From NCBI GenBank assembly GCA_965248435.1, contig OZ252100.1, forward strand, positions 960,001-1,024,000: 64,000 nucleotides of DNA, written 5' to 3'. The translations under genes were made by a program, and so were the position numbers. How positions within the stretch are numbered: the first letter of the stretch is position 1; the number at the start of each line of letters is the position of its first letter. Under the pieces are notes generated by a model. That model was not told the origin of the DNA. It ran no database searches and worked only from the letters and a program-made list of their open reading frames with translations. Source of the DNA: Candidatus Latescibacterota bacterium. GTDB lineage: Bacteria > Latescibacterota > UBA2968 > GCA-2709665. Positions 33,702 to 60,841 of this stretch are shown in pieces.

Positions 33702-33703
33702 CT

Positions 33704-34504: not shown

Positions 34505-34507
34505 TCC

Positions 34508-34960: not shown

Positions 34961-34989
34961 TAGGAGATACCGTTCAATCGAATGATCTC

Positions 34990-36101: not shown

Positions 36102-36170
36102 ATCAATTCGACTACCCGCGTAGTCGTGAACGATGTTGGTAACCTAGACTAGCCGCGATAAATTCTTGGA

Positions 36171-37121: not shown

Positions 37122-37166
37122 AGCGAGACTCCCGGATTTTGTCTTGGCCCAGCCCACGATGTATCG

Positions 37167-37754: not shown

Positions 37755-37765
37755 TCGCCTTCATC

Positions 37766-39732: not shown

Positions 39733-39836
39733 TAAAGAGAGTACCTCACCAAGGCATCCGTTCTGGTGTTACCAAACTCAGAACAGCGCTTCTCCCAGCG
39801 CTTCCGGACTGTGAAAATCGATTGAGCCACTTCCAT
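39732..39836 (-). CDS. 34-aa small ORF coupled to the downstream gene
   Basis: GGAGGAG RBS; MEVAQSIFTVRKRWEKRCSEFGNTRTDALVRYSL; TAATG stop/start overlap. Confidence 0.4.
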   Translation of the reverse strand: MEVAQSIFTVRKRWEKRCSEFGNTRTDALVRYSL

Positions 39837-39900
39837 TCTAGGTTACTCCTCCGTAGCACCTCTGATTTCCACTATAGGATTCCCTCTATCATCTCAGCTA

Positions 39901-40686: not shown

Positions 40687-40697
40687 CTAGGTCTCTC

Positions 40698-41441
40698 TCA
40701 GGGTATTTTGAATACGAACAGGTCTACGGGCTCGAGGATCGGCCCGTCGGGCTGGGAATCCTCATCTCTTGCCATCGCCTCCAGTCCTTCTTCGAACTCT
40801 GAATCAGTGATGCTCGCCAGATCCGACAGAGCCCGTTGAGCAAGTTTTTCTCTGTACTCGTTGAATGATCCTGCGAATACCTGATTAATCACTGTGTGGT
40901 CAACTAGACTAAATCCATTCGCTTGAATGGTCCCGATAAGCTCCGATTTTCCAGGCAGCATTTTCTTTCCCACACGTCGGGCACTTGGAAAATACTTCAG
41001 ATACGGCACGCGATCATGCAGATCCAGGGTTGAGTTCCGGATACATAGCTTGCCACCTGCTCTGAGCACCCGGAACCACTCACGCGTCGCTTCGATCGGC
41101 TCAGTGAGGTGATGGAACACCATTGAGAGAAAGACTAAGTCAGATGAATCGTCTCTGATGGGGACAGCGTGAGTGTCTCCTCTGATAAATCTCACATTAT
41201 TTCCATCCGATCTGGCTTGGCTAAGCATTCTAAAGGAGGGATCGATCCCAATGAGCCTTGCGTTGAACCTTTCGGCAAGGGCATCAGAGAAGCGTCCTGT
41301 CCCACATCCAACATCTACAATACGCCTGACTGGTCCCACGATCAGATCTGCAATCGCATCCAGCCAGATCCTCAGTGTGGCTTCGGGGAGCTGCCTCGCC
41401 TTTACATAGGTGGCAGGTATGTCAGTGCGGTCGTATTCCAA
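40698..41441 (-). CDS. Class I SAM-dependent methyltransferase
   Basis: VDVGCGTGR motif. Confidence 0.9.
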   Translation of the reverse strand: MEYDRTDIPATYVKARQLPEATLRIWLDAIADLIVGPVRRIVDVGCGTGRFSDALAERFNARLIGIDPSFRMLSQARSDGNNVRFIRGDTHAVPIRDDSSDLVFLSMVFHHLTEPIEATREWFRVLRAGGKLCIRNSTLDLHDRVPYLKYFPSARRVGKKMLPGKSELIGTIQANGFSLVDHTVINQVFAGSFNEYREKLAQRALSDLASITDSEFEEGLEAMARDEDSQPDGPILEPVDLFVFKIP

Positions 41442-42138
41442 CGTTTGACTCAGGGTTCGCTTTGATATTCACGCAGATGTGATCGAAACTCAAGAAGATC
41501 CCTCTCAAAGCAATCTCCATAAGATCGTTTCTTCGCGTCCAGCATTGCGAGGCACGATCGTAGAAAGCGTAGTCGTCGGCATTCAACTCTCGAAATCTCT
41601 CAACTATCGACTCAGGAATCTTCGGAGATTGATAATCCCCAACATTCTCTCTGCTGTAGTAGAGATGTGGCCATTGGAACTGGTGATCCAATAGGACCAG
41701 AGACTCGTCAAACTGTTCTGTGACACCCACAAAGTCGTATCGCTCCATGGGACGCTTATCAAACCACTGTTTGAACCGGTTCTGACCGTACCCGGGAGGA
41801 TCTGGCCACCTAGGTGGTTCTGTGTTCGTCAGGAATACTCCGAGCCCTCGGTCAGTGAATCGTGCGCCAGGGTATCTCTTGGCAAAGAAATACATAGAAA
41901 TTGCTGAGCTGAGTGGTTCTCTCAAGAAGGTGATCCACTTCACCTTCCGGTGTGCGTTTATGGTGTCAGAAAAGTATTTAAAGACCCCGTGCCCGTGAAT
42001 GCACATAGGATTCTGAACTATGGGCCACTCTTCACTCTCGTCGTATGCCATCTGCAAGCGGTCCCCGAACCTCTGCTTGAGAAGCTGGCGGAATGTTATA
42101 CCGCCTGTCTTGGGAATATGCAGGCTTACATATAGCAA
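41422..42138 (-). CDS. Sulfotransferase family protein
   Basis: LHIPKTGG (5'-PSB), TFLREP...S.Y, FVGVTE and N..DY.FY motifs. Confidence 0.85.
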   Translation of the reverse strand: MLYVSLHIPKTGGITFRQLLKQRFGDRLQMAYDESEEWPIVQNPMCIHGHGVFKYFSDTINAHRKVKWITFLREPLSSAISMYFFAKRYPGARFTDRGLGVFLTNTEPPRWPDPPGYGQNRFKQWFDKRPMERYDFVGVTEQFDESLVLLDHQFQWPHLYYSRENVGDYQSPKIPESIVERFRELNADDYAFYDRASQCWTRRNDLMEIALRGIFLSFDHICVNIKANPESNVGIRPH

Positions 42139-42223
42139 TCTTCTCTCCCTGTCTCCTCGCTTCCTCTCCTCCGAGCCTCGCGTATGATGTAAGTAGGTGC
42201 CACAGACGTTTCCCCGGATCGAG

Positions 42224-42568
42224 CTATTTCGCCGCTAACGCGACAATTTCGATCAACGTATCTCCCTCCAGTTTCACTTCGACGCAAGCCCGTTGTGGCC
42301 AGTTGTCCTGCCCGATCCAAGGGTCCCATATCTCGTTGACAATAGGTTTCTTCTCAATGTCTGTGATGTAGATGGTTACGGAGACCAACCGGGTTTTGTC
42401 CGTGCCTGCTTCTGCTAGGTTAGTATCTAACTGCGCAAGCGCCTGCTCGGTCTGGCTCCTCAGATCTCCTGAAAAATCCGTTGCAATTACAGCCGTGTAG
42501 ATCAATCCATTGTGCTCGACGGATTCGCTTCGGCCAACGGCCTTGCCAGTATACCGCTTGATTGACAT
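42224..42568 (-). CDS. RidA/YjgF family protein (YoaB-like)
   Basis: QTEQAL, NEIWD.W, PQRACV and IEI motifs. Confidence 0.9.
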   Translation of the reverse strand: MSIKRYTGKAVGRSESVEHNGLIYTAVIATDFSGDLRSQTEQALAQLDTNLAEAGTDKTRLVSVTIYITDIEKKPIVNEIWDPWIGQDNWPQRACVEVKLEGDTLIEIVALAAK

Positions 42569-42618
42569 GCTCTATTCCTTATGTCGGAATCTGCTTATGC
42601 TCCCCAAGTCACATCCGA

Positions 42619-43389
42619 TCACCGCTCTTTCGTAGCGACTAAGAGAAATTCCCCTGGAAGCGACCTCGCTTCGTCTAGTTTCTCACCGAATCGCCAGGTG
42701 TCGTGGCTTGGATATTCTGAGAGGTGATTTATATGTAAACCCGAGGCCACCAAAGCAGTAATGATGTCACCGAGCGGCCAACTGAACTGATATTTCGTCT
42801 CCCGAGCGTCCTCCCCGCCTTCGAAATGCCTCCAGCCCGATCCCACGATAGGCTCCTTCCGACTGAAATAGTCGTCCTCCATGATCAATACTCCATCCTT
42901 CACAGAAAGACACGCAGCAACTGGGTGTCCCTCCAACAGAAGAAGGCGTCCACCCACACCCAATGCTGACGAGATATTCGTCGCCCAGACCTCAATATCT
43001 GGAATCCATACCAGAGAACCGCCTCCAGTATGGATGATGTCAAACCCCACTCCAGTAATATCCGCAGGCAGACAGCAAACATCCGCGACATGGAATGATA
43101 CGGGGATGCCGGCCTCCTCAGCCTTGTTTCGAGCGAGACTGATCTGTCGAGGACTTATGTCGACTCCCGTTGCAATTGCACCAAGGACGGCCCAGGAAAT
43201 TGCCTCTTCACCCGTGGAACACTGACATTGCAGCACAGTCTTTCCTGTAATCTCTCCGGCTGCCTCGATAAGGAGCGGACTCAACGTTGTGTTACCTGAA
43301 GCATAGTAGCCTGCCGGTTTGGTCCGTTTATGGCGAACTTCGGCAATCTCGTCCCATGCCCTAGCATTCTGCGATGTAAACTCTCGCAC
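42619..43389 (-). CDS. Class I SAM-dependent methyltransferase
   Basis: VLQCQCSTG, TGVDIS and L.WIPD motifs. Confidence 0.88.
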   Translation of the reverse strand: MREFTSQNARAWDEIAEVRHKRTKPAGYYASGNTTLSPLLIEAAGEITGKTVLQCQCSTGEEAISWAVLGAIATGVDISPRQISLARNKAEEAGIPVSFHVADVCCLPADITGVGFDIIHTGGGSLVWIPDIEVWATNISSALGVGGRLLLLEGHPVAACLSVKDGVLIMEDDYFSRKEPIVGSGWRHFEGGEDARETKYQFSWPLGDIITALVASGLHINHLSEYPSHDTWRFGEKLDEARSLPGEFLLVATKER

Positions 43390-43413
43390 AACTATACCCT
43401 CTTTCCATCACTC

Positions 43414-43962
43414 CTAGTCTTGCCACTCGCTTCTTAGAAGACCATACAGATGCATGTCGTGCCTCTCTCCGTCGCGTTCCATGAATTGTCTGAACGTGCC
43501 CTCTCTCTTAAAATTCATCTTCTCATACAAAGCAATTGCTCGGTCGTTGAAATCAAATACCGTTAACTGAAGTTTGATGAGATTGAGTTCTTTGATGGCA
43601 TAGTCGATAAGAAGCTCGGTGGCTTCCGTGCCGTATCCTTTTCCCCAGTCATCTGGATTCCCAATCCCAATGCCCAACCAGGCGACGCGATTCGGCCACT
43701 CGATCTCAGCTAGGGAAACAGTGCCGATGATCTCCTCTTGATCCAAAAGTCGAATAGCGAACACCAGTTCACGCTCTGTCTTTCCCAACCCGTCAATCCA
43801 TTCCTTGATCTGAGTCTCCGTTCGCTCCGTGATAGGATCGGAGCCCCAAAGCCTCAGGAATCGAGTGTCCTCCCGCCATTTGAGAATGGTTGAGACATCT
43901 TCCAATCTAAGCAGAGTCAAACGTATTAGGTTTCCGGCTAAAAGGTTTGTGGGATGATCCAT
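43414..43962 (-). CDS. GNAT acetyltransferase (RimJ/RimL type)
   Basis: WGKGYGTEA and NDRAIALYEK..F.REG motifs; start set at MDHP after a GGAG RBS. Confidence 0.92.
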   Translation of the reverse strand: MDHPTNLLAGNLIRLTLLRLEDVSTILKWREDTRFLRLWGSDPITERTETQIKEWIDGLGKTERELVFAIRLLDQEEIIGTVSLAEIEWPNRVAWLGIGIGNPDDWGKGYGTEATELLIDYAIKELNLIKLQLTVFDFNDRAIALYEKMNFKREGTFRQFMERDGERHDMHLYGLLRSEWQD

Positions 43963-44065
43963 GGTAGACTCCTGGTGAGGAGGTAGTGAAGGGCTTGGAG
44001 GATTCCTCTGCGACCTGTATGCCATTTTGACCGAGCCGTAAGACCGCAGCAATGCTATTGCTCAA

Positions 44066-44461
44066 TCATAATCCATAATGCATTGGCACCCTGGTGGCAG
44101 ACACCTCAAACCCACACTTCTTGTAAAATTCGACTGGACCTTCGGCAAGGAGCAGCTGCTGGAAGAAACCCTGGTAATTGGAGATGAGCTTCCGCATGAT
44201 CAGACTTCCAATCCCTTTTCCTTGATAGTCCGGCAACACCAGGAGGTGGGGGTAGTATACGACGAGTGATCCATCCGATATAGCATTACCGAGTCCAACC
44301 AGGGTATCTCCATCCCATGCCGTGACCAAGGAGTGTGAGTTTATGAGACCATCGTGCAATTCATTGGGCTTCTTGGCAGAAGACCACTTGTTGGCCTCGT
44401 ATAGCGGTAGAATGTGCTCTTTCGAGATGTCTCGGGTCTCTCTGAGTCTGATTCCTTCCAT
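44066..44461 (-). CDS. GNAT acetyltransferase
   Basis: ISDG, V.PDYQGKGIG and FYKKCGF motifs. Confidence 0.92.
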   Translation of the reverse strand: MEGIRLRETRDISKEHILPLYEANKWSSAKKPNELHDGLINSHSLVTAWDGDTLVGLGNAISDGSLVVYYPHLLVLPDYQGKGIGSLIMRKLISNYQGFFQQLLLAEGPVEFYKKCGFEVSATRVPMHYGL

Positions 44462-44476
44462 GACTACCTCACGAGC

Positions 44477-44998
44477 CTAATGGAGATACTCGCTCCTCAA
44501 CATTCGATAGAATGGCCAGCCAGGCTTATATTCCCCGTCCTGTTTGAACCCAACTTTCTCCAGAACTCTAATCGAAGCAACATTTCGTGAATGGACCCAC
44601 GTTTCAACCGACGGCAAATCCAATGTCTTGAAGCCATAGTTGACAGCTGCTGCAGCTAGCTCCGTAGCGAGCCCGCGGCCACAATAGCTAGGATGAATGA
44701 TGTAGATCAGCTCGTTCTTAGGTTCCTCGTCACGAGAATCCCGGGTTAGTCCACCCCATCCCACAACCATTGAGGTTTGTCTCAAGACAGCGACCCAGGG
44801 TGAGAACCCCTCAGGTTCAAGCAAAGACGCATGGTTTTCTAACCAAGCTTGTGTCTCCGCAAGAGACAGGGGTCTCTCTGGACCGATATACTTCATCGAT
44901 TCAGGATCTGAAAACGTGGAATAAAGAGCTTCATCATCCGAATCGATAGGATCTCTTAGGGTCAGTTGCTCAGTTTGGATAAGTTTCTGCATGGTCAT
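44477..44998 (-). CDS. GNAT acetyltransferase (RimJ/RimL type)
   Basis: GRGLATE and NVASIRVLEKVGF motifs. Confidence 0.92.
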   Translation of the reverse strand: MTMQKLIQTEQLTLRDPIDSDDEALYSTFSDPESMKYIGPERPLSLAETQAWLENHASLLEPEGFSPWVAVLRQTSMVVGWGGLTRDSRDEEPKNELIYIIHPSYCGRGLATELAAAAVNYGFKTLDLPSVETWVHSRNVASIRVLEKVGFKQDGEYKPGWPFYRMLRSEYLH

Positions 44999-45008
44999 AA
45001 CCAGCTTT

Positions 45009-45752
45009 TCAGTTCTTCCTCGCGGTAACTACCAATCTACTTCCTTCTCTCCCATACTCCCTGCCATCGAAACCCCCATACAGCTTAATCTCTTTAAATC
45101 CCACCTGCCCAAGACGGTCTTTCATCTCCTGCCCAGAATACACGGCAGTTGAAAACTTGAAACTGTGGGTTTGGCCATCCTTTATCACGATCCACTCGTT
45201 CCGAATCCGAGTCCAATCTTTAATCACCTCATGACGTTGAATCCAAAGGGTGCCATCTTCTAGTTCAGTTGAGCTTGTTGGCTGAAACACTTTGGCCAAC
45301 CACTCTTTGCTAACTACGTCGATCACACAAGAACCATCCGCCCTCAGATTGCAGTAGATATTATCCAGAACTTTCAGATTCTCCTCTTCCTTGTCAAAAT
45401 ATCCAAACGAGGTGAACAGGTTCAATACCAGGTCATAACTGTCCTCGCGGACAAACCTCCGCATGTCTTCCAAGATCCATTCAACCTGCACTTTCTCAGC
45501 AACCGCCCTTTCGCGTGCTTTTTCCAATAGATACGGCGTGAGGTCTACTGCTGTTACGTCCAGCCCTCTATGGGCTAACACCACAGAGTGCCTCCCCGGG
45601 CCGCAGCAGAGGTCTAGAACAGAATGACCTTCGAAATTCACCAGTTTCAGAACCTTCTCGACCTGTTCTTCTGCCTGTGCAAATCTCTTGCTTGGAAACA
45701 TGAGCGGATACATCGTAATCCAAAAAGATTCATCTTCAAACCAGTCAGTCAT
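45009..45752 (-). CDS. Class I SAM-dependent methyltransferase
   Basis: LDLCCGPGRH, DMR and LFTSFGYF motifs. Confidence 0.93.
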   Translation of the reverse strand: MTDWFEDESFWITMYPLMFPSKRFAQAEEQVEKVLKLVNFEGHSVLDLCCGPGRHSVVLAHRGLDVTAVDLTPYLLEKARERAVAEKVQVEWILEDMRRFVREDSYDLVLNLFTSFGYFDKEEENLKVLDNIYCNLRADGSCVIDVVSKEWLAKVFQPTSSTELEDGTLWIQRHEVIKDWTRIRNEWIVIKDGQTHSFKFSTAVYSGQEMKDRLGQVGFKEIKLYGGFDGREYGREGSRLVVTARKN

Positions 45753-45767
45753 GTTAATCTCCGCAAG

Positions 45768-46307
45768 TCAAAGCTGATCGTTCAGGGGCGCCTGAATCAA
45801 CCGCGACATCTCGTACTCAAACAAGGCGCAATCGTTTGGGTACGGCTCTGTGCGTCCAGTCTTTTTGAATCCGATTCGCTCATAGAAATCGATAGCTGAG
45901 TTGTTGTTGCAAGTCACCATCAGCAGCAAAATGTGAACTTTCCGTGCACGTGCCCAGTTCAGAACACCATCGACCAACAAACGACCCACACCTAAGCGTC
46001 GCTGATCTGGTGCGACCCACATCGATACGAGATGCGCTCTCGTATTGTCTAGCTTGTCGAGAAATCCAGCGACGATCCCGCACGAGATGTCCCCGTCCAT
46101 AGCTAGATAGGTAGTTGAATTCGCACCATCCCTCTCTGCTGCATGTTTAATCCACTCGGGGTCGGTAAGCTGAGACTCCTTAGCATAGGTAGATCCGAAT
46201 GCTCCGGGCGAATCTTGCAAGGCTCGCAATCTTACATCCTTGAATGTCATGGCGTTCCGACGGGCGACCGCAACAAGCGTGACCATAGGCTGCCTTTCCG
46301 CTAACAT
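45768..46307 (-). CDS. GNAT acetyltransferase
   Basis: RLRALQDSP.AF, SMWVAP..RR.GVG and FYERIGF motifs. Confidence 0.92.
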   Translation of the reverse strand: MLAERQPMVTLVAVARRNAMTFKDVRLRALQDSPGAFGSTYAKESQLTDPEWIKHAAERDGANSTTYLAMDGDISCGIVAGFLDKLDNTRAHLVSMWVAPDQRRLGVGRLLVDGVLNWARARKVHILLLMVTCNNNSAIDFYERIGFKKTGRTEPYPNDCALFEYEMSRLIQAPLNDQL

Positions 46308-46376
46308 TCTTCGATTTGATTTGAGTGCTCATCCAACACATAGCTCCCATAGAGTTTCCCAACTCGAAACCGAATC

Positions 46377-46796
46377 CTACAAAAGTTTCCTGAAGTAGGT
46401 AGCGGACTCTTCATATCCGATTGCTTTATAGAAGTCTTCAGCTCTGCGTGTAGCCAATGCAATCAGCCTTGAGTCCCTTTCCTTAGCTTTTTGTTCAATC
46501 ATTACTACAAGCTCTCTGCCTATTCCTTGGCCTCGGAACTCATCCTCCACAAAAAGCTCCTCGATCCAGGTCACGATCCCATTCGCGAAAAAGGTCAGGT
46601 GGTGGAATGCGAGAACATACCCGACCGGTGAGCTGCCCCGTTCCGCTACTAGAAGGTCAGCGTTTGGATCTGCTAGAACATCTTCAATCGATTTGACGAA
46701 TGAACCTGTTCGTGTTTCGAAGCTTGAGGCGAACTTTCTAACCAAAACGAGCAGTAAGTCCCTGTCATCGCTCTGGGCTTCTCTAATACCAACCAT
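46377..46796 (-). CDS. GNAT acetyltransferase (first gene of the array)
   Basis: IEELFV...RGQGIG and FYKAIGY motifs. Confidence 0.92.
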   Translation of the reverse strand: MVGIREAQSDDRDLLLVLVRKFASSFETRTGSFVKSIEDVLADPNADLLVAERGSSPVGYVLAFHHLTFFANGIVTWIEELFVEDEFRGQGIGRELVVMIEQKAKERDSRLIALATRRAEDFYKAIGYEESATYFRKLL

Positions 46797-46819
46797 TCTG
46801 ATTCCAACGTGAAAACGTG

Positions 46820-46860
46820 AAAAAGAAAAAACCCGCGGTCGAGAGGTCTCAACGGCGGGT
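46820..46860 (-). terminator. Intrinsic terminator in the 5' leader of the array
   Basis: Minus strand ACCCGCCGTTGAG-ACCT-CTCGACCGCGGGT followed by TTTTTCTTTTT, 24 nt before the first ATG. Confidence 0.8.
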
Positions 46861-46885
46861 CAGGTTCTGGCGCAAGGTGTCTTGC

Positions 46886-47030
46886 TCAAGGCCACAAATG
46901 ATCCCGCCGCTTCATCTTAAGGGAATGCCAGTTGATAGCGGCATGGGTTTCTACCTGCTTATTCGAACGGGCAGGTCCCTCAGTCAGTTCGATTGGGAAA
47001 CATGAAGGTCGGCGGGTGATCATTGGCTAT
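46886..47030 (-). ncRNA. Structured leader RNA (putative attenuator or riboswitch, family not recognised)
   Basis: Long stem 47002-47027 pairing with 46891-46915 enclosing two hairpins; its 3' strand CGGCGGG is also complementary to the terminator 5' arm. Confidence 0.6.
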
Positions 47031-47072
47031 TTACCTATTACGATGATTAGAGATGTGCATCCAACTGATAAG

Positions 47073-47102
47073 AATATATAAACTGGCACCCGTTGGAGTC
47101 AA
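47073..47102 (-). promoter_or_regulatory. Sigma70-type promoter for the array
   Basis: Minus strand TTGACT-N18-TATATT. Confidence 0.55.
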
Positions 47103-47206
47103 GATCTTTCTGTTTGTTGGTCACGAATGCTACTCTGACTCCGTGGCTTTCCTCCGGCGATTTAAGTGGCCGGGGTCTGCAGACGATTGCACACAAAAGA
47201 GGTTCA

Positions 47207-48750: not shown

Positions 48751-49710
48751 TCACACTTTCTTTGGTCGCTTTGGGCGCGATCTTCCACTGCTATAAATAG
48801 GATACTCGTAGCCCTTCAGAACGTTATCGACTGTATCGTTCTGCCCAGACCCGGCCCGAGGTCGTCGAACAGTCTGCCTCTTTCTATGCTTACTGGCCCT
48901 TTCAAGGGCCGCCTTCGCCTTCCCGAATACGACTCGGCTGATGATGGGCTCGTGTTCCCCTTTCACCTTGAGGTCAGCATGCCGGACCACACCAATATGG
49001 AAGTCATTGGTGAGCATATCGTGTAGGGCCTGCCAAGAGAACGGCTTCCCCTTCCGGTTCTTGACGTCCATGATCTTGAGATATCGTTCGAGTGCCCTGA
49101 TTTGCCCGACCTTCAGGAAGGCCCTGAAGATCTTCTTCACCTGGGGGGCCTCTTCAGGATGGGGCTCGATGAATTTCTGAATGTTCCTTCCATCTACCTT
49201 TGTTGCCCACATGTAGCCGTATGGGGCCTCACCACAGGGCTTGAGGCCCTTCAGGGCCCTTGCCCGTCTGCCACGTTTTAGACGCTGAGCGATCACTAGC
49301 CTCTCCCAGGCATTGAGCAGCCCGATCATCCCACTCACCAGAAACTGGTTCGGGTCGTTTTCTGAGTAAATCGTGAAAGTGGGCTCATCGACAGCCCTGA
49401 TATCTTTCTTAACGTCTCTCACCGCCTTGATGATCATGGCCTGGGGATAGATATCTCTCCAGAGCCTAGAGGTCGAAGCGGTGACGATATAGTCGATATC
49501 GTTCAGATTCCCGAGCATCGCCTCAAGCCTCTCCCTTTCGAGGCTCGCCCCCGAAACAGCTTCATCGACGTATTCCTCGAGAACCCTGATCTGGTTGGCC
49601 GCGCAGTAATCTCTGCAGAGCCTGAGTTGAACATCGAGGCCCTGACCATCGAGCTGGGTCCCTGTTGAGACCCTGGCGTAGATATGAGCCCGCTTCTTTC
49701 GTTGTGCCAT
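48751..49710 (-). CDS. Serine recombinase (resolvase catalytic domain + recombinase DNA-binding domain)
   Basis: YARVST..Q, SG....R..L, SRLWR, ER..I..RLKRG, APYGY and GEHEPII motifs; no Zn-ribbon/coiled coil after the recombinase domain. Confidence 0.93.
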   Translation of the reverse strand: MAQRKKRAHIYARVSTGTQLDGQGLDVQLRLCRDYCAANQIRVLEEYVDEAVSGASLERERLEAMLGNLNDIDYIVTASTSRLWRDIYPQAMIIKAVRDVKKDIRAVDEPTFTIYSENDPNQFLVSGMIGLLNAWERLVIAQRLKRGRRARALKGLKPCGEAPYGYMWATKVDGRNIQKFIEPHPEEAPQVKKIFRAFLKVGQIRALERYLKIMDVKNRKGKPFSWQALHDMLTNDFHIGVVRHADLKVKGEHEPIISRVVFGKAKAALERASKHRKRQTVRRPRAGSGQNDTVDNVLKGYEYPIYSSGRSRPKRPKKV

Positions 49711-50027
49711 CTGCCAATTTCCTTGTAACATTCTGTTGCCATTAACCACTTGTCGTAAGTGACTGAAATATAGCAGTTTATGTATAACTGTTCAAGAGTT
49801 ATTTATGTCTCTTAACGTTCAGGAACGGGAGTTGACAGGATTCAGGTGGGGCAGGGTGGGCATAACTTAATGAGAATGATGTAGTTAGGGGAATTTTCAG
49901 TTTGGCAGGATGCGGAGAGTGGCGGGAGACTTAGGCTTAACACTACTGATAATAACGTGTTATGGTAGCATATGGAAGCAGAGCGCCCGATTGAGAGCCA
50001 GCCAATGCTCTATTCACCGAATCCAGC

Positions 50028-50140
50028 GGAAATTTGGTCGTTCTCCACCGTAGCCAACTATTACAGGGGTGCGCGGAGAACATCCTGGAAATCCTGAGGA
50101 AGGTCGTCTCAGGGGGGGATTCGAACAAAATCGAGGGGGT
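50028..50140. repeat. Diverged inverted copy of the attC-inserted element
   Basis: GGAAATTTGGTCG.TCTCC ... GGAGAAC...GGA.ATCCT.AGGAAG ... GGATTC ... AAAAT.GAG.GGGGT blocks colinear with the reverse complement of 17117-17232. Confidence 0.7.
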
Positions 50141-50190
50141 CCTAAGTCGGAAAGAGGGGCTCAAAACGAGTGAATTCTGGAGATTTCATA

Positions 50191-50203
50191 TAAGTGATTG
50201 ATT
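50191..50203 (-). promoter_or_regulatory. IHF consensus site
   Basis: Reverse complement AATCAA-TCAC-TTA fits WATCAANNNNTTR; a near-match at 49756-49768. Confidence 0.45.
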
Positions 50204-50680
50204 TCAGTGGTCTTATACCAGAATCCCGTAAGATCGTTCGGAATCAGCCTCTCCCTAGGCCCCCAGATCACTCCCAGATCGGCCCTTCCCTCGATTCTCC
50301 TCCTGGGCCATCGGATGTAGATCGCACCCCAGCAGGGCAGCATCGGGAGGTTGCTTTCTTGTCCCGCGCATAGTCGGGTACCGGTCTCGAGGAGTGGCCA
50401 CCCCATTAGACCCACTTTCTGCCTCACACGACCTTATCCCACTATGGCCCTCACCATTACTGCTACCCCTGCCATGGTCCTCACTCTGACCTCACTCAGA
50501 TCCACCCCATTTCGGTCGTTACCCACATGACCAACCTTCCTCGCTGCCACCTCCGCACCTGGCCCTCGCTTCTGCTCCCCTAGGCTATCCCCCTTATATC
50601 TCGGCCTTTCGGCCTTTTCCACCTTCCTTGCTGCTACCCTTCCGCTTCACTACTGCTTTCTCAACCTATTCTCCCATGGG

Positions 50681-50879
50681 CCATCAACTCTTTTCTCCAT
50701 TGAAAAGAAGCCCCACCGGTCATCTCAAATCCCCAGGGCTCTCCATTAATGTGGCATATTCTTATGCTAGGCTTGGCTCCTAAATGCCTAAGGCTTCTCT
50801 AGCTATTCTGCCGTTCTCCTACAACCTCAGCGACCCTACATTACTAATAACGTTCTCTTCCTCTTTTCTCCTGTTTCCT
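50681..50879 (+). repeat. ~200-bp diverged direct repeat, copy A
   Basis: Colinear with 63019-63216 (e.g. ATCCCCAGGGCTCTCCAT, ACCCTACATTACTAA). Confidence 0.8.
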
Positions 50880-50904
50880 TCAGAGGGACGGAAAAGGAGG
50901 TGCC

Positions 50905-51009
50905 ATGAAAGCTGTGGAGGAACTCAGGGGGCGCTTGATTGAAGACTTCGAAAAGGTTGAACTGACTAATTATCAATTACGCCCAAGGCAGGAGAGAACT
51001 AAAATCTGA
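50905..51009 (+). pseudogene. Small ORF or frameshifted helical-protein remnant
   Basis: AAGGAGGT RBS, MKAVEELRGRLIEDFEKV...; a plausible continuation lies in another frame to about 51088. Confidence 0.35.
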
Positions 51010-51225
51010 GCGAGATGGGCTGGAGGAAGCTGTTCAGATCAAGATGGCCGTGCTGAGGGGATGTCTGCAGAATAGAAGACGAAAATGAATGTAATTGCTA
51101 TCCATCTTTTTCAATTGCTAGACGGCACATTACTATATCCCGTAGTCGGCTTTCGGCCAACAGTGTCCACCTAAGCAATAGCTTTTTGTAAGATGACTCC
51201 TCCTGTGGTGTAATCACCTGCAACC

Positions 51226-53529: not shown

Positions 53530-54992
53530 TCAATTCGCTGGTCTGCAGTTGTGCTTTGTTTTTCCTGTTGGTGCTGGCCCCGTTCGTTTGTTCGCTTGGC
53601 CGATATGTCTTACAGCCCAGCAGTTGTTATCGTGGTAGAGGTTGCTGTTTTTGCTCCAGGTGAACGAGGGAGTTCCTTGAGGTGGTGGAGTGTTGTGGGT
53701 GAACCATATGGGCGCTGTCCAGGCGTCGTCGTTGAGGTCGTCGCGTTTCCTGTCTGATCCTCTTTCGCCGGTGTCGTTTATGGTAATGTCCGTTCCTTGG
53801 CCCTTTGGATTGTCTTTGCCGTTCTCTTCGGTGATGTGGAGATAGAGGTATTCTCCACTTACGACTGGCACAGGGATTGTGTGTTGTTACCTCCTCTTAG
53901 AATGTGCGTGTCCCAAGTACTTGCTTGTCGTCCGCCGATGCCGTCTGGGTCGCTGACGATGCTGACCGTGTAGGGACCTTCGTCTGTCGAATCTCCGTCT
54001 GAGCCTGTGCTTTGCCAGATCTTGACTAGAAGTTCAACGTCAGCTTCAGCTATTTGGAGGGGCACGGTATCTCCCATCCAGTACGTATTGCCGTTGTAGC
54101 GCGCCTGGAATGCCACGACGAGTTCATCGTCTTCAGTGGCGTAAGCTCTGTTTGCTTTGAATCCGTTCACAAGGCCTTGGAATGAGACCTCGTTGGCCCA
54201 TACGGCTGTTCGTGCCGCAGATACGGTTCCCCAGTTGGTTCGATGTGTGTCTTGGTTGGCTGAGGGTGCGATGTGAAATCCATAGTTGAGAAATCGTTTG
54301 TAGTAATTCTCCCATTGGGCGTCCCGGTGGACCTTGTCCTCGCTTTCCTTATCGGGCCCATTGAGGTGGCCTCCCGCGACGCTGGTGATGATTGAGATCG
54401 TTTTGATCACAGGGTCAGTTGCGCGCACGAAGGCTTGCGAGCTGTCATAGAGTGCGATTCCGAAGTTGCCTACTCGCCTATTCCTGTTTGATTTCCGCTT
54501 CCATCCATGAGGATGATTAAGTTGGACGAATTCCGCGTGTTGTTTTGCCCACTCGTAGAGATCATCGTAGTCTTTATCTTTGATCCTGTCCGGTGGCGGT
54601 GTCCTTGAGCCGAAAATGTTGAGGTGGTTGCCTGTTGCAGTGTTGCCCCACTCTATAGCCGGGACCGCCACGAACTCTCCCGCGTGGTCGCTGTTGTACT
54701 GCATGGCAACGTCATAGAGGAGCGTCTTGTATTCCTGCCGTGTCATGCTGAGCCTGTGAGAGCTATCAGTTGCTTTGTGGTGGTCAGTGATAGCCAGGAA
54801 GTCCAGGCCGTTTTGGTGGGCATAGGGGAATGCCTTGTCGGGGAGCATTTCGTCGCCAACATGCTTGATGTCATCTGAGAGTTTTGAGTGCGCATGTAGG
54901 TTTCCGAAGAGAACAACCTTGTCGTCATGGCTTGGCTTTTCCGCCCAAGCCGTCGTGCTCAGAGCGATGATGATGAACAATAGTCGCGTCAT
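53530..54992 (-). pseudogene. Secreted PHP-domain (CehA/McbA-like) metallohydrolase split by a frameshift near 53880
   Basis: GNLHAHS..SD, TDH, GH.N, NHP and QDTH in ORF 53859-54992; the expected terminal AWTAPIW lies in overlapping ORF 53530-53871. Confidence 0.75.
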
Positions 54993-55083: not shown

Positions 55084-55307
55084 AAAAAAAACCCAGAGGC
55101 TGTCCTGCCATCTAGGACGCATCTGGGTTTCATGAAAAGCACCTACATAGGCGACGATTCCTCCCCGGCAGAAACCTTGCCTCACCACACAGAGTGCGCT
55201 CAGTCTAAATCGTCATAGACCGGATTGGCTCCGCGGAATACCATTTGAAATCTGGATTCCGGACGCCGCCAAACTTAAATTTGCAACTGTTTCCCCAGTT
55301 TTGTCAA
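55084..55307 (-). ncRNA. Promoter + structured leader + terminator motif, copy 1
   Basis: Conserved with 60663-60841; GGCGGCG/CGTCGCC stem and ACCCAGA...TCTGGGT-T tract. Confidence 0.65.
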
Positions 55308-55388
55308 AGCTTTTTTTGATTGTGTCATAGATGAGGCTTCTAACTGAACTCCGGACATATTCGGGATCCCCTCCGGGAGAGGTGAGTC

Positions 55389-55541
55389 TCATCCGTAGCG
55401 ACCCGCCTGAGTGGCGAACATTTCAGCATATCGGCCTCCGTGGTTGACTAGCTCCTCGTGGGAACCCTGTTCAATCAACCTGCCTTTGTGCAAGACCAAG
55501 ATATGGTCGGCCATCCGAACCGTTGAGAATCGATGCGAAAC
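55389..55541 (-). pseudogene. C-terminal fragment of an ABC transporter ATP-binding protein
   Basis: Hand translation VSHRFSTVRMADHILVLHKGRLIEQGSHEEL...GRYAEMF..QA; the upstream part is absent. Confidence 0.85.
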
Positions 55542-55715
55542 CTTCAGAAAGGAGCCCACGGCCAGGGCTCTACTGAAAGACCGAGGACAACTGTGATGGA
55601 GTCTCCTCTCGGGAAGGGTTTCTGAGAAGCCACAAACACGTTATAGAGAGCAACCAGCCGAGCCGTCCCCTCGACGAAGACCTTAAGGCGTGACCAGCTT
55701 AAGAACAGTTAGCGA

Positions 55716-57413
55716 TCAAACGACCAAGCGAACGAATGAAGGTACTCCGGTTCCAAGTTTTCCTCGCAAAAGCAATCTTGCAAGACGTAGTCCTGCTTTA
55801 AGCCAACCAAGAGGTGGGGTAAGGAGCTCGACTACCAATGGAATCGCTCTGGAGAGAAAAACAGATGTTTCGAGAAAAGCTCCAGCCGTGGCGTCGATTT
55901 TCTTAACGTGCGACCCGATGTCCTCTTGGTTGAGAGTGTTCTCGATCCTACTCACTGCATCAAAGTCAAAATCGAAGTCGGTGGTGAGCCCTGCCGTGGT
56001 GATGATCCGCTTCCCAAAAATGAATCTGATCGCGGTCCTAAAAGTCTCATACGCTTCTTTGATCTCAGCAATCAGCGATTTCGCTCCGTTCTTTACCCAC
56101 CGAAAGAAATCATGGATCGCGGATAGGACGGCCGAGATTCCTTGCTTGATTACCTGGGCAATCTTCCCGAAGAACGCTCTCAGCCCACCCCAGAATCCAC
56201 GTCCGTTCCTGGTCTTCCTCTTGTGTTTCCTTTGTTTAGCCTCCTCGACGAGTTCCTCGTCGATTAGATCGCTCAGGCCAACGTAGAAACCATTCCGGTC
56301 GGGGGCCCGTATCCCTTCTGCAATCGAATCAATCTCTCTCGAGATGGAAGTTCTTCTCCCGTACACAGCATCTACACTCTGAAAGACGGAACCGAAAAAG
56401 AATTTTGCATTAATAGCCCAGTGATTCCTACTGAGCTTTATGAGAAAGGACTTCTCATCTACGACGGGGGACGTTTGGTTGTAATTGACCATCTGTGCGA
56501 AATGCTCAATTGCTTGGTGACTCAAGCTCCCCATGTCATTATCGAGTTTTCCAACATATGTACCCTGAAGCCACAGCCTAAGCTGCACGAGCCTAATGAC
56601 CAACCTATTGACTTCGTCCTCTTCGAAAGCCCGTACTTCGTCAAATTCGCCTCCTCGCAAACCTCTCTGAGTTCTTCTTCTTACGGGACTGTTTGGGATC
56701 TTTCTGAGTATGTATCTGGTTGCCTTGTCGATCAGAGGCACGACAGAGCGATTCGCTTTTTGAGGGAGGAGTTCGAATGACTCAGAGAGGAGTTTTCTGA
56801 CATTGCGGTACTTCCCTACTTCAGACCAGTCCGATCTCTGGAAGAACACCACCCCGAAATAGCTACTCCCTTCAAATTCGTCCATCTCGTTGATTCGTCT
56901 GATGAGTGAAACGACATCTCCAGCTAGTTCGATGACCCGACTAAGAGATCGTACGGACAACCAACCTTTTAGTTTCGCAAGTGCGGATTCTGCACTCTCG
57001 GTAACGACTGGCCCAGCCTTTTCTGGCACTATTGACAGAGCGCTGAGTCGGTAGGCTAGAATGCGAGAGAGGATTCTGTCGCCTGATATCTCCGAAAGCG
57101 AGAATTGGTGAAGAGCGAACTCATTTTCCAAGGAGCTGATGCGCCCAAGGAATGCGACTTCCTCTGGTGAGAGAAAGGGTGATTCGACAGTCGCCGGCTT
57201 CGGTTCGATGATCGTGGCTGAGAGATCTGACCGGAATTCGACAATGCCCTCCGCGACCTCCGCAGGCGATGGTCGTTGGTCCGAATTCTGGTAGATATCG
57301 ATGTATCCCAGATAGTCCAGAAGTTCTTCGGATTCATCCTGCTGTACGTCTTCAAATCGACCAGTTGTAAGCCCCTGAAAAATCTCTGAATCGAATGTAT
57401 CCAGGATGCTCAT
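55716..57413 (-). CDS. Hypothetical protein with a peptidoglycan-binding-like motif and amphipathic C-terminal helices
   Basis: LVQLRLWLQGTYVGKLDNDMGSLSHQAI resembles PG_binding_1. Confidence 0.65.
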   Translation of the reverse strand: MSILDTFDSEIFQGLTTGRFEDVQQDESEELLDYLGYIDIYQNSDQRPSPAEVAEGIVEFRSDLSATIIEPKPATVESPFLSPEEVAFLGRISSLENEFALHQFSLSEISGDRILSRILAYRLSALSIVPEKAGPVVTESAESALAKLKGWLSVRSLSRVIELAGDVVSLIRRINEMDEFEGSSYFGVVFFQRSDWSEVGKYRNVRKLLSESFELLPQKANRSVVPLIDKATRYILRKIPNSPVRRRTQRGLRGGEFDEVRAFEEDEVNRLVIRLVQLRLWLQGTYVGKLDNDMGSLSHQAIEHFAQMVNYNQTSPVVDEKSFLIKLSRNHWAINAKFFFGSVFQSVDAVYGRRTSISREIDSIAEGIRAPDRNGFYVGLSDLIDEELVEEAKQRKHKRKTRNGRGFWGGLRAFFGKIAQVIKQGISAVLSAIHDFFRWVKNGAKSLIAEIKEAYETFRTAIRFIFGKRIITTAGLTTDFDFDFDAVSRIENTLNQEDIGSHVKKIDATAGAFLETSVFLSRAIPLVVELLTPPLGWLKAGLRLARLLLRGKLGTGVPSFVRLVV

Positions 57414-57643
57414 AGGCGAGACCTAAATTTCATGGTGATTCTCACGAAACGAATCAAACTCAGGCCGAAATCCCTCACAGAATCAGGCAATCTGTCAGGA
57501 ACACGAAGATCGTTCTCGTCTAAGACGATATCTGGTTGCGATGCTGGGAGAACTGCCCTGATCCTCGAGAAAATGTCTCTGTTACTCAGTCCCTCTATAG
57601 AGAGCCTCACTTGCCCGGAAAAGAAATAGAACCTTACGATCAC
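57410..57643 (-). CDS. Hypothetical protein
   Basis: Fills the operon gap; ATGA overlap with the next gene. Confidence 0.5.
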   Translation of the reverse strand: MIVRFYFFSGQVRLSIEGLSNRDIFSRIRAVLPASQPDIVLDENDLRVPDRLPDSVRDFGLSLIRFVRITMKFRSRL

Positions 57644-57664
57644 TCTTCTGTCAGCGCCTTTAGA

Positions 57665-58213
57665 TCAACCTAATCTGAGTAGCTTCATAACCGTATCGAA
57701 TAGTGCCTTCCGGGATTCCTGCGACGCGGCAACTAGCTCCTTGTGGAAGGCCGCAAGATCCCTTAGAGATTCGTTGTTGTTGACGTAATGAATAGAATCT
57801 CCTTCGATTTCAAACCGAGAGTATGCAACCAGCTGCACATTGGCGCCTCCAAGGATATCTTGCATCTTTGAGAAAGTGTCCTTGGGATCGTACAAACCTA
57901 AGGCCATCTCTATATCCTTCACTATCTTCTGCTGCGTCTTAACGGCGGATTTCAGGCTCTTTATCTTGCTCTTCCTATCGGCCTTCTCAGTCTCATCATC
58001 GGGATCCTGGAGAGGAGTCGCAATTGTCGTGACGAGATCTCCCCTGAGACGATCCAGTTCTTGTGTCTGTGCGTCCACTTTATCCTGATCCGCTTGTGGT
58101 AGGGGTTGTTTGGCGAGACTTACTGGTACTTCTCCAACATTCGTCAAGGTCGCGACCTCAAGGCTAACAAGGTCTTCTGCCACGTCCTTCAGATAGTCGA
58201 GCACTCCGGGCAT
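57665..58213 (-). CDS. Hypothetical coiled-coil protein
   Basis: Start MPGV after AAAGGTGG; shares motifs with 58249-58488. Confidence 0.75.
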   Translation of the reverse strand: MPGVLDYLKDVAEDLVSLEVATLTNVGEVPVSLAKQPLPQADQDKVDAQTQELDRLRGDLVTTIATPLQDPDDETEKADRKSKIKSLKSAVKTQQKIVKDIEMALGLYDPKDTFSKMQDILGGANVQLVAYSRFEIEGDSIHYVNNNESLRDLAAFHKELVAASQESRKALFDTVMKLLRLG

Positions 58214-58248
58214 CTGGATTCCACCTTTCTTACAGATGTGTGGACGGC

Positions 58249-58488
58249 TTAGGTTAGTGAAGCTATCAGAGAAAGAACTGCAAGTTTGCACTTCTGAGCG
58301 GCAACGGTCTGTGACAGGTGGAGCTTCAGAACTGATGACAACTCACTATCGGGTAAAGTTGGCAACCAGCTCAACGAATCCGCCTCGATCTCAGTTTTCG
58401 TGTAGGCGAGGACGGCCTGATCAACGGCTACAGCAGTTTCCGTTGATGTCAAGTCAGATACGAGAGCATTAAGCTGTTCCATGAGCAT
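58249..58488 (-). CDS. Hypothetical protein, short paralogue of 57665-58213
   Basis: Shared DL.S.E.A / AY...EIE.DS / H...V.A.Q pattern. Confidence 0.65.
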   Translation of the reverse strand: MLMEQLNALVSDLTSTETAVAVDQAVLAYTKTEIEADSLSWLPTLPDSELSSVLKLHLSQTVAAQKCKLAVLSLIASLT

Positions 58489-58512
58489 AGAAGATCTCCC
58501 AGGGTGGGTTAG

Positions 58513-58692
58513 TTAGAACGAGCGAATCACGACGCTGACACGTATTGCGTGGTGCTGGAGGGGGAGGCAGCGGTCCCCCAGCTGGGTGTAGTAAGGCCTC
58601 GAAATTCCCATCCTCTCAGCCAAGTCTTGGGCCCTTAACCCTCGCTTTTCCCTACATTTCCGGATCCTACTCCTGATTTGGCTCAGAATCAT
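58513..58692 (-). pseudogene. Truncated XRE-family HTH regulator
   Basis: RIRKCREKRGLRAQDLAERMGISRPYYTQL, then loses the HTH_3 pattern (expected E.G). Confidence 0.65.
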
Positions 58693-58742
58693 AAATTCAC
58701 CCCCATTTCTCAGTATGGATGATTTACTTGCGAACTCTACTG

Positions 58743-58763
58743 AATGTAACACATTGCTACATT
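58743..58763. promoter_or_regulatory. Dyad (possible operator) upstream of the XRE gene
   Basis: AATGTAAC-N5-GCTACATT. Confidence 0.4.
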
Positions 58764-59052
58764 AGTCAAGAGAAATCAACGGGGCAGCCCGAATGCGAGC
58801 CGGCCCATCAATGTGGCCTGAAACAAGAACCCTAATTAGGAGATAGTGAAATGAGCACCGTATCTATTGAAGCTCTTCACCGTGCCAGTCGATGCCGCCA
58901 CAAAGGCTGAAGCATATTATCGCGAAATCTGGGCGAACTGGCTGGATGGCCCGCTCCAGCTTGTCGTGGCCCATTTGGAATTGTCCTATTTCAGGTTGCT
59001 AAGCAGCTGCATCCTCTTCCTCACATTCGGCACAATTGGCTTAACCCATCTA

Positions 59053-60468
59053 TCACAAATTGAGGAAATAGGAAAGGACTGTGAATTGCGACAGTCTCAG
59101 ATGTCCGTCTTCTTCGACCCACTGATTCTCGGAGAAATCTTGAACATAAATCCAAATTCTCTTCTTCCTCGTGAGCCGATCAATCACTCCGAAGGCGAGG
59201 CGTCTTGCTCCCTCAGCGAATTCGTTACGTATCCTATTCGCCGTGCCCCCGTCCAAAACGTCATCCCATAGGTTGTGTAGATCCACGTCCGCATCAAACC
59301 TGGCCCATGCCGCGGTATACTCAATACGACCATTGATGGCGCCCAACAAGAATGTTACGGTAAGGAGCATGTTCTCCATATTACCATGACGCGCTCCGCC
59401 GCTAAGACCCCCACCGGAACATATCGGTTCAAACTCTGGGCCGTTTTCCTCAAAGAGGAACTGCGCGACCATATACCGTTCGCCTGAAAGCGAGAACCTT
59501 GGATGCGTGCCTCGATTCTCGTCCAATGAGGCGCTCGTCTCCTCTTCTACCGGGTCGATTGAATTAACGTCGAGAATCCCAGTTTTTCTAAAATTAGGCA
59601 CATTGTCAGGACATCTAGGATCGTCAGAATTGTCTCCACATCTTGGGTCGTCTGCTCCATAGCAACGTGGGTTGTATTGGGCTGTAAAATTGCCACGATT
59701 TCCAAGTGTCTCGGTCCAGCTATTGTCCTCACCATGGCTAATGTGAATCTTTATGCTTTCAAACACCCGGCGCATTCCCGCCACAGGACTGCCGTCGTAT
59801 ATTGTCAGGGGTTCATCCCACCAAGTGGGCGGGAGAGTAACTGTCTCTATGGGGACCGGACTTGGGTAGCAGATCTTAACGGTGTGAAGTTTCTCATCCT
59901 CCTCGCTAGTTCTTGGACGCATATCTGTAACCACGACTTTCCACCAACCCTTTGGATCTGATTCAGTGAGGCTGTGGGAAAGCTCTGCCAAACCAAGGGA
60001 ACGATCGAGTTCTGCGTCAAAAGCCCTGCTGGCAACGCGGCTCATACCTCCGTTCCCGTCAGGCCTGAACAACTGGATCCTTCGTGGGGTCTGCTCCTCG
60101 CGACTAAGAGCTCCTGTTGATCCAAGCTCTACCAGAGTCGTCGCAGCCCGGGATTCGATGGAGACAATACCACAAGTGGCTACGGGAAATCTGACCTCCA
60201 TGGACCCTCCTTCGCTGAGGTCCGCACTTCCATTCAGACAGGATCGCACCCATCTTCGACCGTCGCAGGTGAGCATATCGCTTGTTGAATCCGGGTGTCG
60301 GATCAACACCAGTGACACTTCGCCGGTCAAATGCCCTTCCTCAGCACCCAGCTGGTCGTCCTTTCTGTTGAAAAATGCCTCCTGTTTCGGAGACTGACAT
60401 CCCACTAAAGCCGCAACAACGACAAATGGGATGCCTTTTCCAATTACCAACAGACATATTCTATTCAT
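59053..60468 (-). CDS. Hypothetical lipoprotein
   Basis: Hydrophobic leader ending in a LVGC lipobox; long ORF. Confidence 0.65.
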   Translation of the reverse strand: MNRICLLVIGKGIPFVVVAALVGCQSPKQEAFFNRKDDQLGAEEGHLTGEVSLVLIRHPDSTSDMLTCDGRRWVRSCLNGSADLSEGGSMEVRFPVATCGIVSIESRAATTLVELGSTGALSREEQTPRRIQLFRPDGNGGMSRVASRAFDAELDRSLGLAELSHSLTESDPKGWWKVVVTDMRPRTSEEDEKLHTVKICYPSPVPIETVTLPPTWWDEPLTIYDGSPVAGMRRVFESIKIHISHGEDNSWTETLGNRGNFTAQYNPRCYGADDPRCGDNSDDPRCPDNVPNFRKTGILDVNSIDPVEEETSASLDENRGTHPRFSLSGERYMVAQFLFEENGPEFEPICSGGGLSGGARHGNMENMLLTVTFLLGAINGRIEYTAAWARFDADVDLHNLWDDVLDGGTANRIRNEFAEGARRLAFGVIDRLTRKKRIWIYVQDFSENQWVEEDGHLRLSQFTVLSYFLNL

Positions 60469-60499
60469 GAGGCTATCTCTTTTTTGATGGAGCGAGCAC

Positions 60500-60560
60500 A
60501 TCTAACGGACCGGGCACTGGCACACCGCGCTGGCGGGTAGCGCTGGGGCCCGGGTGCCCG
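60500..60560 (-). repeat. Possible degenerate attC (R'' end missing)
   Basis: ATCTAACGGAC-CGGGCAC...GTGCCCG, 30 nt upstream of the lipoprotein ATG. Confidence 0.4.
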
Positions 60561-60662
60561 CCGACTCAGTGCTTCGCTCACTACTTGCCAGATTTTCTCC
60601 AAAATCGGTTCTTTACTGAGTGAGGCGCCAAAACCGACCGGCCTGCTTATGTATTCTGAAAC

Positions 60663-60841
60663 AAAAAACCCAGAAGGCAATCCCGTGATCCGGAACGCAT
60701 CTGGGTTCACTAAAAGCCCTACATAGGCGGCGATCCCTCCCGACAAACTTACACGTTTCCGCTACCACAGAATCCCGACTTTATATCAGGATTCCGGACG
60801 CCGCCGAGTTCAATTTGCAACTGTTTCCCCAGTCTTGTCAA
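60663..60841 (-). ncRNA. Promoter + structured leader + terminator motif, copy 2
   Basis: Conserved with 55084-55307, with stem-preserving changes. Confidence 0.65.

Follow-up and report, generated by a model that had tools for sequence, protein, structure and literature searches.

A repeated promoter, leader and terminator cassette ahead of unrelated genes in a Candidatus Latescibacterota genome, with a putative ribosome-gated attenuator

Two related modules, copy A (55084-55307, minus strand) and copy B (60663-60841, minus strand), lie in a 64,000-nucleotide (nt) stretch of the genome of a Candidatus Latescibacterota bacterium (assembly GCA_965248435.1, contig OZ252100.1, positions 960,001 to 1,024,000 of the forward strand), referred to below as the window. 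They belong to a real, uncatalogued family of RNA plus promoter, narrowly and patchily distributed, of which we found ten members. Each carries a Shine-Dalgarno (SD)-like box, an AUG and a terminator hairpin ahead of a gene, most behind a recognisable promoter box. Our favoured reading, to which we give about an even chance, is that these are portable cis-acting leader cassettes in which ribosome loading gates an attenuator ahead of unrelated genes. The placement in cis is well supported; the mechanism proposed here is read from the sequence.

The original prediction held that A and B share a series of motifs on the minus strand, and the whole series was recovered in both copies: TTGACA, GGCGGCGTCCGGAATCC with a hairpin, TGTGGT, GGGAGG.ATCG(T/C)CGCC, TATGTAGG, and AACCCAGATGCG running on to TCTGGGT and a T tract. 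The two copies have a mean column identity of 77% in the alignment, with one 42-nt insertion in A. When copy B was used as the query against the whole 5.67-Mb genome, copy A was returned at E values of 3.5e-16 and 2.2e-12, and the likeness is therefore not a matter of chance. RNA folding energies compared with those of shuffled sequences gave z scores of -2.9 for A and -3.4 for B. What the earlier motif list had overlooked is that GGGAGG is followed by an AUG, the two together making a putative ribosome-binding site, and that in both A and B a stop codon stands directly behind this AUG.

BLAST and two motif scans of the genome gave two copies beyond A and B, and a covariance model built from three copies (R1) gave three further copies in the genome and one in a genome of the sister genus (G004). 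A second model, R2, built from eight copies, was run on the family (22 genomes), the order (53), an even sample of the phylum (151) and the whole class (132), while a third, R3, containing the conserved 3' core only, was run over the 132 genomes of the class. R2 and R3 agree on the same ten-member census: seven members, A-G, are in this genome, H is in G004, and two genomes from a second family within the class contribute a single copy apiece, I in G122 and J in G119. The search of genomes with covariance models built from the copies, which the original prediction had proposed, thus extended the family from two members to ten. Members occur in 4 of the 132 class genomes searched, in three genera and two families, and the model search of a genome of the same genus (G001) found none. 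Two extra matches of the 5' motif in the genome were set aside as chance, since they lie within coding sequence and the rest of the module is missing; weak model matches in nine relatives (G005, G008, G012, G015, G016, G019, G020, G022 and G033) lack the SD-AUG part, the terminator or both. A loose pattern run on public genome contigs returned at least 119 stretches, and none of the 80 among the matches listed fits model R2. The pattern scan of metagenome contigs gave five loci with three weak model matches (11-17 bits), UGG behind the AUG and no terminator, which we judged to be chance, and blastn of the module against plasmid and phage collections gave no match. The view that the family is not one already catalogued held up: Rfam gave no match at the gathering threshold in the window, none over the two modules at E<=10, and none at the loci of the other eight members. 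At E<=10 the window has only two Rfam matches, both unrelated and elsewhere.

All ten members have a two-tier terminator hairpin of -21 to -27 kcal/mol followed by a U-rich tail, which in the window takes the form of a hairpin with a U tract at 55084-55130 (minus strand, -21.9 kcal/mol) in copy A and a hairpin with U6 at 60663-60708 (minus strand, -22.6 kcal/mol) in copy B. The original prediction that the terminators of the two copies differ and yet remain paired is borne out by compensatory changes in 7 of the 16 pairs when all ten members are considered, and in 3 of the 9 lower-stem pairs in a seven-member set. Across the structure 94% of the cells are paired, compared with 41-53% when the partners are slid. 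The quality of the U tract varies, copy F ending in GGGUUCUUC. The internal loop and the upper stem are conserved in sequence beyond what termination needs, even between the two families. A coding explanation for this region was rejected, as the frames opened by its internal AUG differ in length and phase and copy F does not have such an AUG. A terminator-only relative of the two-tier hairpin, which is without the SD-AUG part, was seen in G004 (C1:2195427-2195510, minus strand; 24 bits with R2 and 22.5 bits with R3).

Ahead of the terminator, every member has a purine-rich, GGGAGG-like box 7-12 nt before an AUG, and an A/U-rich linker of 11-20 nt between that AUG and the terminator stem. Across the alignment of all ten members, the AU of the start codon never varies, and its G is more than 90% conserved, as is the GC that precedes the codon. 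In copy A the SD-like box is GGGGAGG (55160-55166) and the AUG is followed at once by UAG (55143-55148), giving an open reading frame (ORF) of one codon; in copy B the box is GGGAGGG (60735-60741) and AUG-UAG lies at 60719-60724, all on the minus strand. An initiating ribosome reaches +15/16 in the textbook toeprint, and the 11-20 nt between AUG and stem would be about that reach. In this genome 35% of long-ORF starts have an SD-like core ahead of them, compared with 14% of control windows, and an SD box is therefore meaningful here; a search for a motif of the 16S ribosomal RNA 3' end gave no match. The planctomycete marker family PF07587 gave none in this genome or among its controls. The box and AUG would together form a ribosome-binding site. 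In E. coli, sites of this start-stop kind bind ribosomes and modulate expression, according to one report (bioRxiv 10.1101/520783).

Six of the ten members have the stop codon directly behind the AUG, and the stop is UAG in three (A, B, D), UGA in two (C, H) and UAA in one (F), so that stop status has been kept across changes of stop codon. The frame of copy E has five codons, its UGA overlapping the first bases of the terminator stem. The other three are long: 98 codons in I and 37 in J, both running through the terminator, and 209 in G, in frame with the downstream gene. The frame of J ends in an AUGA overlap with the start of the next gene, the classic layout for translational coupling. Both I and J open with MSLF, written with different serine codons, which in only two sequences is weak evidence. 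Apart from this MSLF, copies G, I and J show no conservation in their long frames, and with an ORF of one codon in six members and five codons in another there are no codons for sensing. We also considered the in-frame fusion of copy G to its gene as evidence of translation and rejected it, as three of three homologues begin at an internal methionine.

Upstream of the RNA, TTGACA was found in eight of the ten members and TTGACG in copy I, with an A-rich tract ahead of the box; in copy J no such box was recognised. The -10 box is weak and GCAAAT-like. In copy A the -35 box lies at 55302-55307, behind an A-rich tract and 31 nt ahead of GGCGGCG, with the -10 candidate at 55279-55284 (or CAAATT, shifted by one base); in copy B TTGACA follows an A8 tract at 60836-60841 and GCAAAT lies at 60813-60818, each on the minus strand. 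These features suggest a sigma-70-type promoter for each cassette. In six of the seven copies of this genome GGCGGCG starts 29-31 nt past TTGACA, and from this spacing we place the putative transcript start at the first G of GGCGGCG, in the 5' strand of a helix. A sigma-54 promoter (GG-N10-GC in the spacer of A and B) was considered and dropped, since the GG is missing from copies C-G and position -12 of copy I reads GT. Copy I, which comes from another family, matches A and B in its promoter over the whole of the spacer but has a different 5' RNA domain. The spacers of A (55285-55300), B (60820-60834) and I contain an inverted repeat, ACTG-N6-CAGT, a possible operator, and an XRE-type helix-turn-helix (HTH) gene lies at 58513-58752 within the operon behind copy B.

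The helix at the putative 5' end, P1, consists of GGCGGCG paired with CGCCGCC, and 92% of its cells are paired across the seven P1-bearing members. Copy A has its 5' strand at 55264-55270 and its 3' strand, CGUCGCC, which is also the SD-to-AUG spacer, at 55150-55156; copy B has the strands at 60799-60805 and 60726-60732, and P1 appears in its minimum free energy and centroid structures alike. Members H, I and J are without the long P1, and shorter local helices enclose or pair the purine box instead (CUUCC/GGGAGG in H, GGCA/UGCC in I and GGGCGCGA/UCGCGGCC in J). The helix pairs part of the SD and the whole of the SD-AUG spacer, its 3' strand lying between GGGAGG and the AUG, which follows 1-3 nt past that strand, or 4 nt further in copy G. 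A second hairpin, P2, is limited to copies A-D and was located by folding at 55234-55261 in A (CGGAAUCC...GGUAUUCCG) and at 60768-60796 in B, like the P1 strands on the minus strand.

The helix encloses a region of very different size from copy to copy, about 13 nt in J and about 110 nt in A at the extremes, with no conserved core and GGGAGG as its sole unpaired conserved piece. This variation in length disfavours a riboswitch, one of the two regulatory possibilities raised in the original prediction, and the ten downstream genes share no function. The other possibility, control by a protein, can be taken together with small-molecule control: the GGGAGG...CCUAUG box or the upper terminator hairpin would be a binding site for a regulator rather than a ribosome site. 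The order of promoter, leader and terminator would suit such an attenuator, as would the sequence conservation of the terminator's internal loop and upper stem. The ACTG-N6-CAGT repeat and the XRE-type HTH gene are hints that a protein acts on the promoter, if not on more. Against this stand the variable, coreless enclosed region, the lack of an Rfam match, downstream genes that share no pathway, and the fact that no candidate binding protein was identified. This genome and each of 20 relatives (21 of 22 genomes) have a single match to NusG (PF02357) and no paralogue, which makes antitermination of the RfaH or LoaP type unlikely here. The sequences TGTGGTAGCGG in B and GGCGGTAAATG in D resemble the ops consensus, and the resemblance is weak or absent in the other copies. 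We regard control by a protein or small molecule as quite unlikely.

All ten members lie upstream of an ORF in the same orientation, as the original prediction of a consistent 5' placement implied. By our own reckoning, a randomly placed and oriented element would face the next gene about half the time per copy. The gaps between module and gene are 23 nt (F), 30 (I), 38 (G), 39 (E), 52 (J), 70 (D), about 75 (H), 91 (A), 161 (B) and 306 (C). Four of these, in E, F, G and I, are no longer than 39 nt and leave no room for a promoter, and those genes would therefore be read through the terminator. The uniform orientation and these four short gaps are our grounds for calling the module a cis-acting leader. 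They also count against the idea that the members are sibling trans-acting small RNAs (sRNAs), whose conserved single-stranded linker or hairpin would pair with or titrate distant targets, the position ahead of a gene being incidental or the terminated leader doubling as an sRNA. That idea draws on the completeness of each module as a transcription unit, with a promoter, a strong terminator and a product of about 95-190 nt, on a 3' core conserved in sequence across two families more than termination alone needs, and on the presence of several copies in one genome, as is the case in known families of sibling sRNAs. The 5' domain is not conserved, however, and neither Hfq (PF17209) nor CsrA (PF02599) was detected in this genome, which is 97.5% complete, although the control searches found them in five and three reference genomes, respectively. 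An sRNA family is in our view an unlikely explanation.

The genes behind the cassettes have nothing evident in common. In the window, copy A precedes a gene for a DUF3604-like protein of 377 amino acids (aa) with a signal-like N-terminus (53859-54992, minus strand), and copy B one for a protein of 482 aa with a lipobox-like N-terminus and no Pfam family (59053-60501, minus strand), for which a search of the ESM Atlas gave no usable match. Elsewhere the downstream product is a pentapeptide-repeat protein (C), a patatin-like phospholipase (D), a MarC-family membrane protein (E), a DUF1016_N plus SNase protein (F), proteins of no Pfam family (G and H) or, judged by eye, one with a lipoprotein-like N-terminus (J); the Pfam annotation covered the proteins behind A-H. 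The ten proteins are mutually unrelated, with no blastp match at E<0.4, and tabulating them, as had been suggested earlier, revealed no shared pathway or function. The earlier description of the downstream proteins as exported fits A and B, by eye only, and does not extend to the ten-member family. The cargo genes look accessory: a search with the MarC query found no such gene in four relatives, and the 17 kb around A and B match the same-genus genome at a single stretch of 124 nt and G004 nowhere. We saw no mobile element, terminal repeats or target duplications with the cassette. Two junction readings were rejected. A cassette junction, with a terminator for the upstream gene and a promoter for the next, does not fit, as the promoter here precedes the terminator; nor does an attC junction, as no attC-like site adjoins A (55 kb) or B (60.7 kb), the two copies checked, such sites lying at 0.2-33.7 kb with one regular-expression match at 49.8-50.0 kb. 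Six near-identical copies of a 314-aa tyrosine recombinase gene are present in the genome (for example 1448658-1449452 and 5171594-5172388), one of them about 5 kb from copy F. Directly upstream of copy A ends an orphan C-terminal fragment of an ABC-transporter ATPase (55391-55640, minus strand), an 83-aa open stretch without a start codon, which suggests a past rearrangement or insertion.

Reuse ahead of ten unrelated, seemingly accessory genes would also be expected of an unregulated expression head, in which a strong promoter, a stabilising 5' helix and a leaky terminator set a low, fixed level of expression and the AUG-stop is a safeguard. The failure to find MarC in the four relatives queried and the nearly unmatched 17-kb surroundings are in keeping with this, as is the varying U tract (copy F). 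So are the concept of promoter reuse (PMC3575422) and the idea that a stop codon mitigates unwanted translation (10.1101/520783). What such a head leaves unexplained is the conservation of SD box, AUG and terminator spacing in all ten members across two families, and the presence of a strong terminator (-21 to -27 kcal/mol) between promoter and gene. We consider it improbable, to much the same degree as control by a protein or small molecule.

The retention of a strong terminator between promoter and gene is what points to attenuation, and a ribosome-gated attenuator is favoured because the SD-like box, the AUG and the distance to the hairpin are the best conserved features besides the terminator. 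On this ribosome-gated reading, the transcript would begin in a G+C-rich helix, which is P1 in this genome and one of the shorter local helices in H, I and J. By default the helix would hide the ribosome-binding site, the terminator would form, and transcription would yield no more than a short RNA of about 95-190 nt. A ribosome loaded on the SD-AUG site would abut or enter the foot of the hairpin, allowing the polymerase to continue into the gene. In the six start-stop copies it would idle on AUG-stop against the hairpin foot; in the remaining four, translation would carry it to the hairpin or across it, and in E, I and J the hairpin would be melted. The cassette itself has been duplicated or recruited independently of its cargo, by what has been termed promoter reuse.

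Several observations weigh against this ribosome-gated attenuator. Transcription, termination and read-through are all deduced from sequence features. In copies A-D the stem begins 16-20 nt past the AUG, so that a ribosome on the AUG-stop would reach it only marginally, and four members (E, G, I and J) are not start-stop at all; in copy G the in-frame continuation is probably due to chance. According to the E. coli report (10.1101/520783), a stop right behind an accidental AUG may merely mitigate unwanted translation. A simple consensus scan called neither promoter nor terminator in copies A and B, and for this reason the promoter is assigned by conservation of the TTGAC box and not by a consensus -10. 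The change between G-U and G-C in the closing stem, which the original prediction had offered as preserved pairing, is real but one-sided: across the seven P1-bearing members P1 changes only between G-C and G-U, and none of its seven pairs has changed on both sides. We found no conserved antiterminator in the copies folded and aligned. The one candidate, in which 5' GCGUC.GG would pair with CC.GAUGC in the terminator, is kept in six of seven copies and is nearly invariant, and folds in which the ribosome footprint was blocked gave different alternatives from copy to copy. Finally, ten members make a small set, and the seven that share one genome are kin by descent.

Ribosome-mediated attenuators with leader ORFs are represented by the trp, his and pyrBI leaders and by the antibiotic-responsive leaders of resistance genes. 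The cassette resembles them in having, behind a promoter, an SD and start codon upstream of an intrinsic terminator, followed by the gene, and it is pyrBI-like in copies E, I and J, where the leader frame reaches or crosses the terminator. Unlike these attenuators, it has a one-codon ORF in six of ten members and hence no sensing codons, it shows no conserved antiterminator, its ribosome site is enclosed in a helix, and one leader serves ten unrelated genes. Hairpins at the 5' end of the ompA type and RNA thermometers act as stabilisers at the 5' terminus of messenger RNAs or as leaders that occlude the SD. The cassette is similar in that its helix would stand at +1, and the pairing takes in the entire SD-AUG spacer along with part of the SD; it differs in that the occluded start opens a one-codon or unconserved frame and not the regulated gene, and in that a terminator follows.

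Ribosome occupancy at upstream binding sites is treated as a control device, and attenuators are described in general terms, in PMC13285730. Start-stop sites in E. coli, for instance in yecJ and hslR, were mapped by Ribo-RET and modestly lower the expression of their host genes (10.1101/520783). As described there, they share with the cassette an SD-like sequence, an AUG and a stop; they lie inside genes and out of frame, whereas the cassette carries its site within a 5' leader, with a terminator 11-20 nt downstream, as a conserved part of a repeated unit, its occupancy by ribosomes being a prediction only. Mobile promoters, as described by Nijveen, Matus-Garcia and van Passel, are highly similar upstream regions before non-homologous genes, both within a genome and across taxa, and regulatory RNA motifs can travel with them (PMC3575422). 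The cassette follows this pattern, recurring ahead of non-homologous genes in one genome and from one genome to another, and is set apart from generic mobile promoters by a reused unit that can be defined in detail as promoter, gated ribosome site and terminator.

The remainder of the window has further features of note. An unbroken array of small, unrelated accessory-enzyme genes occupies one strand at 326-33700 (minus) and includes genes for S-adenosylmethionine-dependent methyltransferases, GNAT, HAD, APH and HIT proteins, a beta-lactamase-fold protein (PF00144), nucleotidyltransferases, Mrr, an FGE-sulfatase protein and others. Its gaps contain attC-like imperfect inverted repeats (YTAACACG...AACGTTA), and the whole resembles a cassette array of the integron type that has no integron integrase; the integrase model TIGR02249 had no match in the genome at its cut-off (best 104 bits compared with 265). 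The same-strand run goes on at 33700-46800 (minus) with about 20 tightly packed genes separated by tiny gaps, in which no attC-like sites were seen, among them many GNAT and methyltransferase genes, a phosphoribosyl pyrophosphate synthase, a pyridoxal phosphate enzyme of Cys/Met metabolism and an SDR protein. Before the first GNAT gene, at 46797-47206 (minus), stands a different promoter-leader-terminator arrangement with TTGACT, a 17-nt spacer, ATATAT, a leader of about 250 nt and a strong nested hairpin with T6, for which Rfam gave no match at E<=1. A serine recombinase gene (48754-49749; Resolvase and Recombinase domains) adjoins a stretch without any ORF of 120 aa or more (49750-51225), and in this ORF-poor 1.5 kb lies a single attC-like regular-expression match at 49813-49962.

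Should the module prove to be only an expression head or an sRNA family, it would still be a new RNA family missing from Rfam, of local interest. As a defined and testable case, it adds to the little-studied reuse of promoters and leaders, and under the ribosome-gated reading it would offer synthetic biology a compact natural part of about 150-220 bp. It would then combine leader-ORF attenuation with promoter reuse in a new form. A further step, which we put forward tentatively and think unlikely, is that the cassette is a natural plug-in controller of expression, passing from genome to genome independently of its cargo, in which a start-stop frame gated by a 5' helix ties newly acquired accessory genes to the translational state of the cell, for which the signals may be ribosome availability, inhibitors of initiation or termination, or temperature. 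On that further reading it would be the first transcription attenuator based on a start-stop site. If the ribosome-gated reading is correct, even a leader ORF cut down to AUG-stop can gate a terminator, which would give start-stop sites a clear regulatory job. Evolution would then have in the cassette a self-contained device, used again and again to connect newly acquired genes to the cell.

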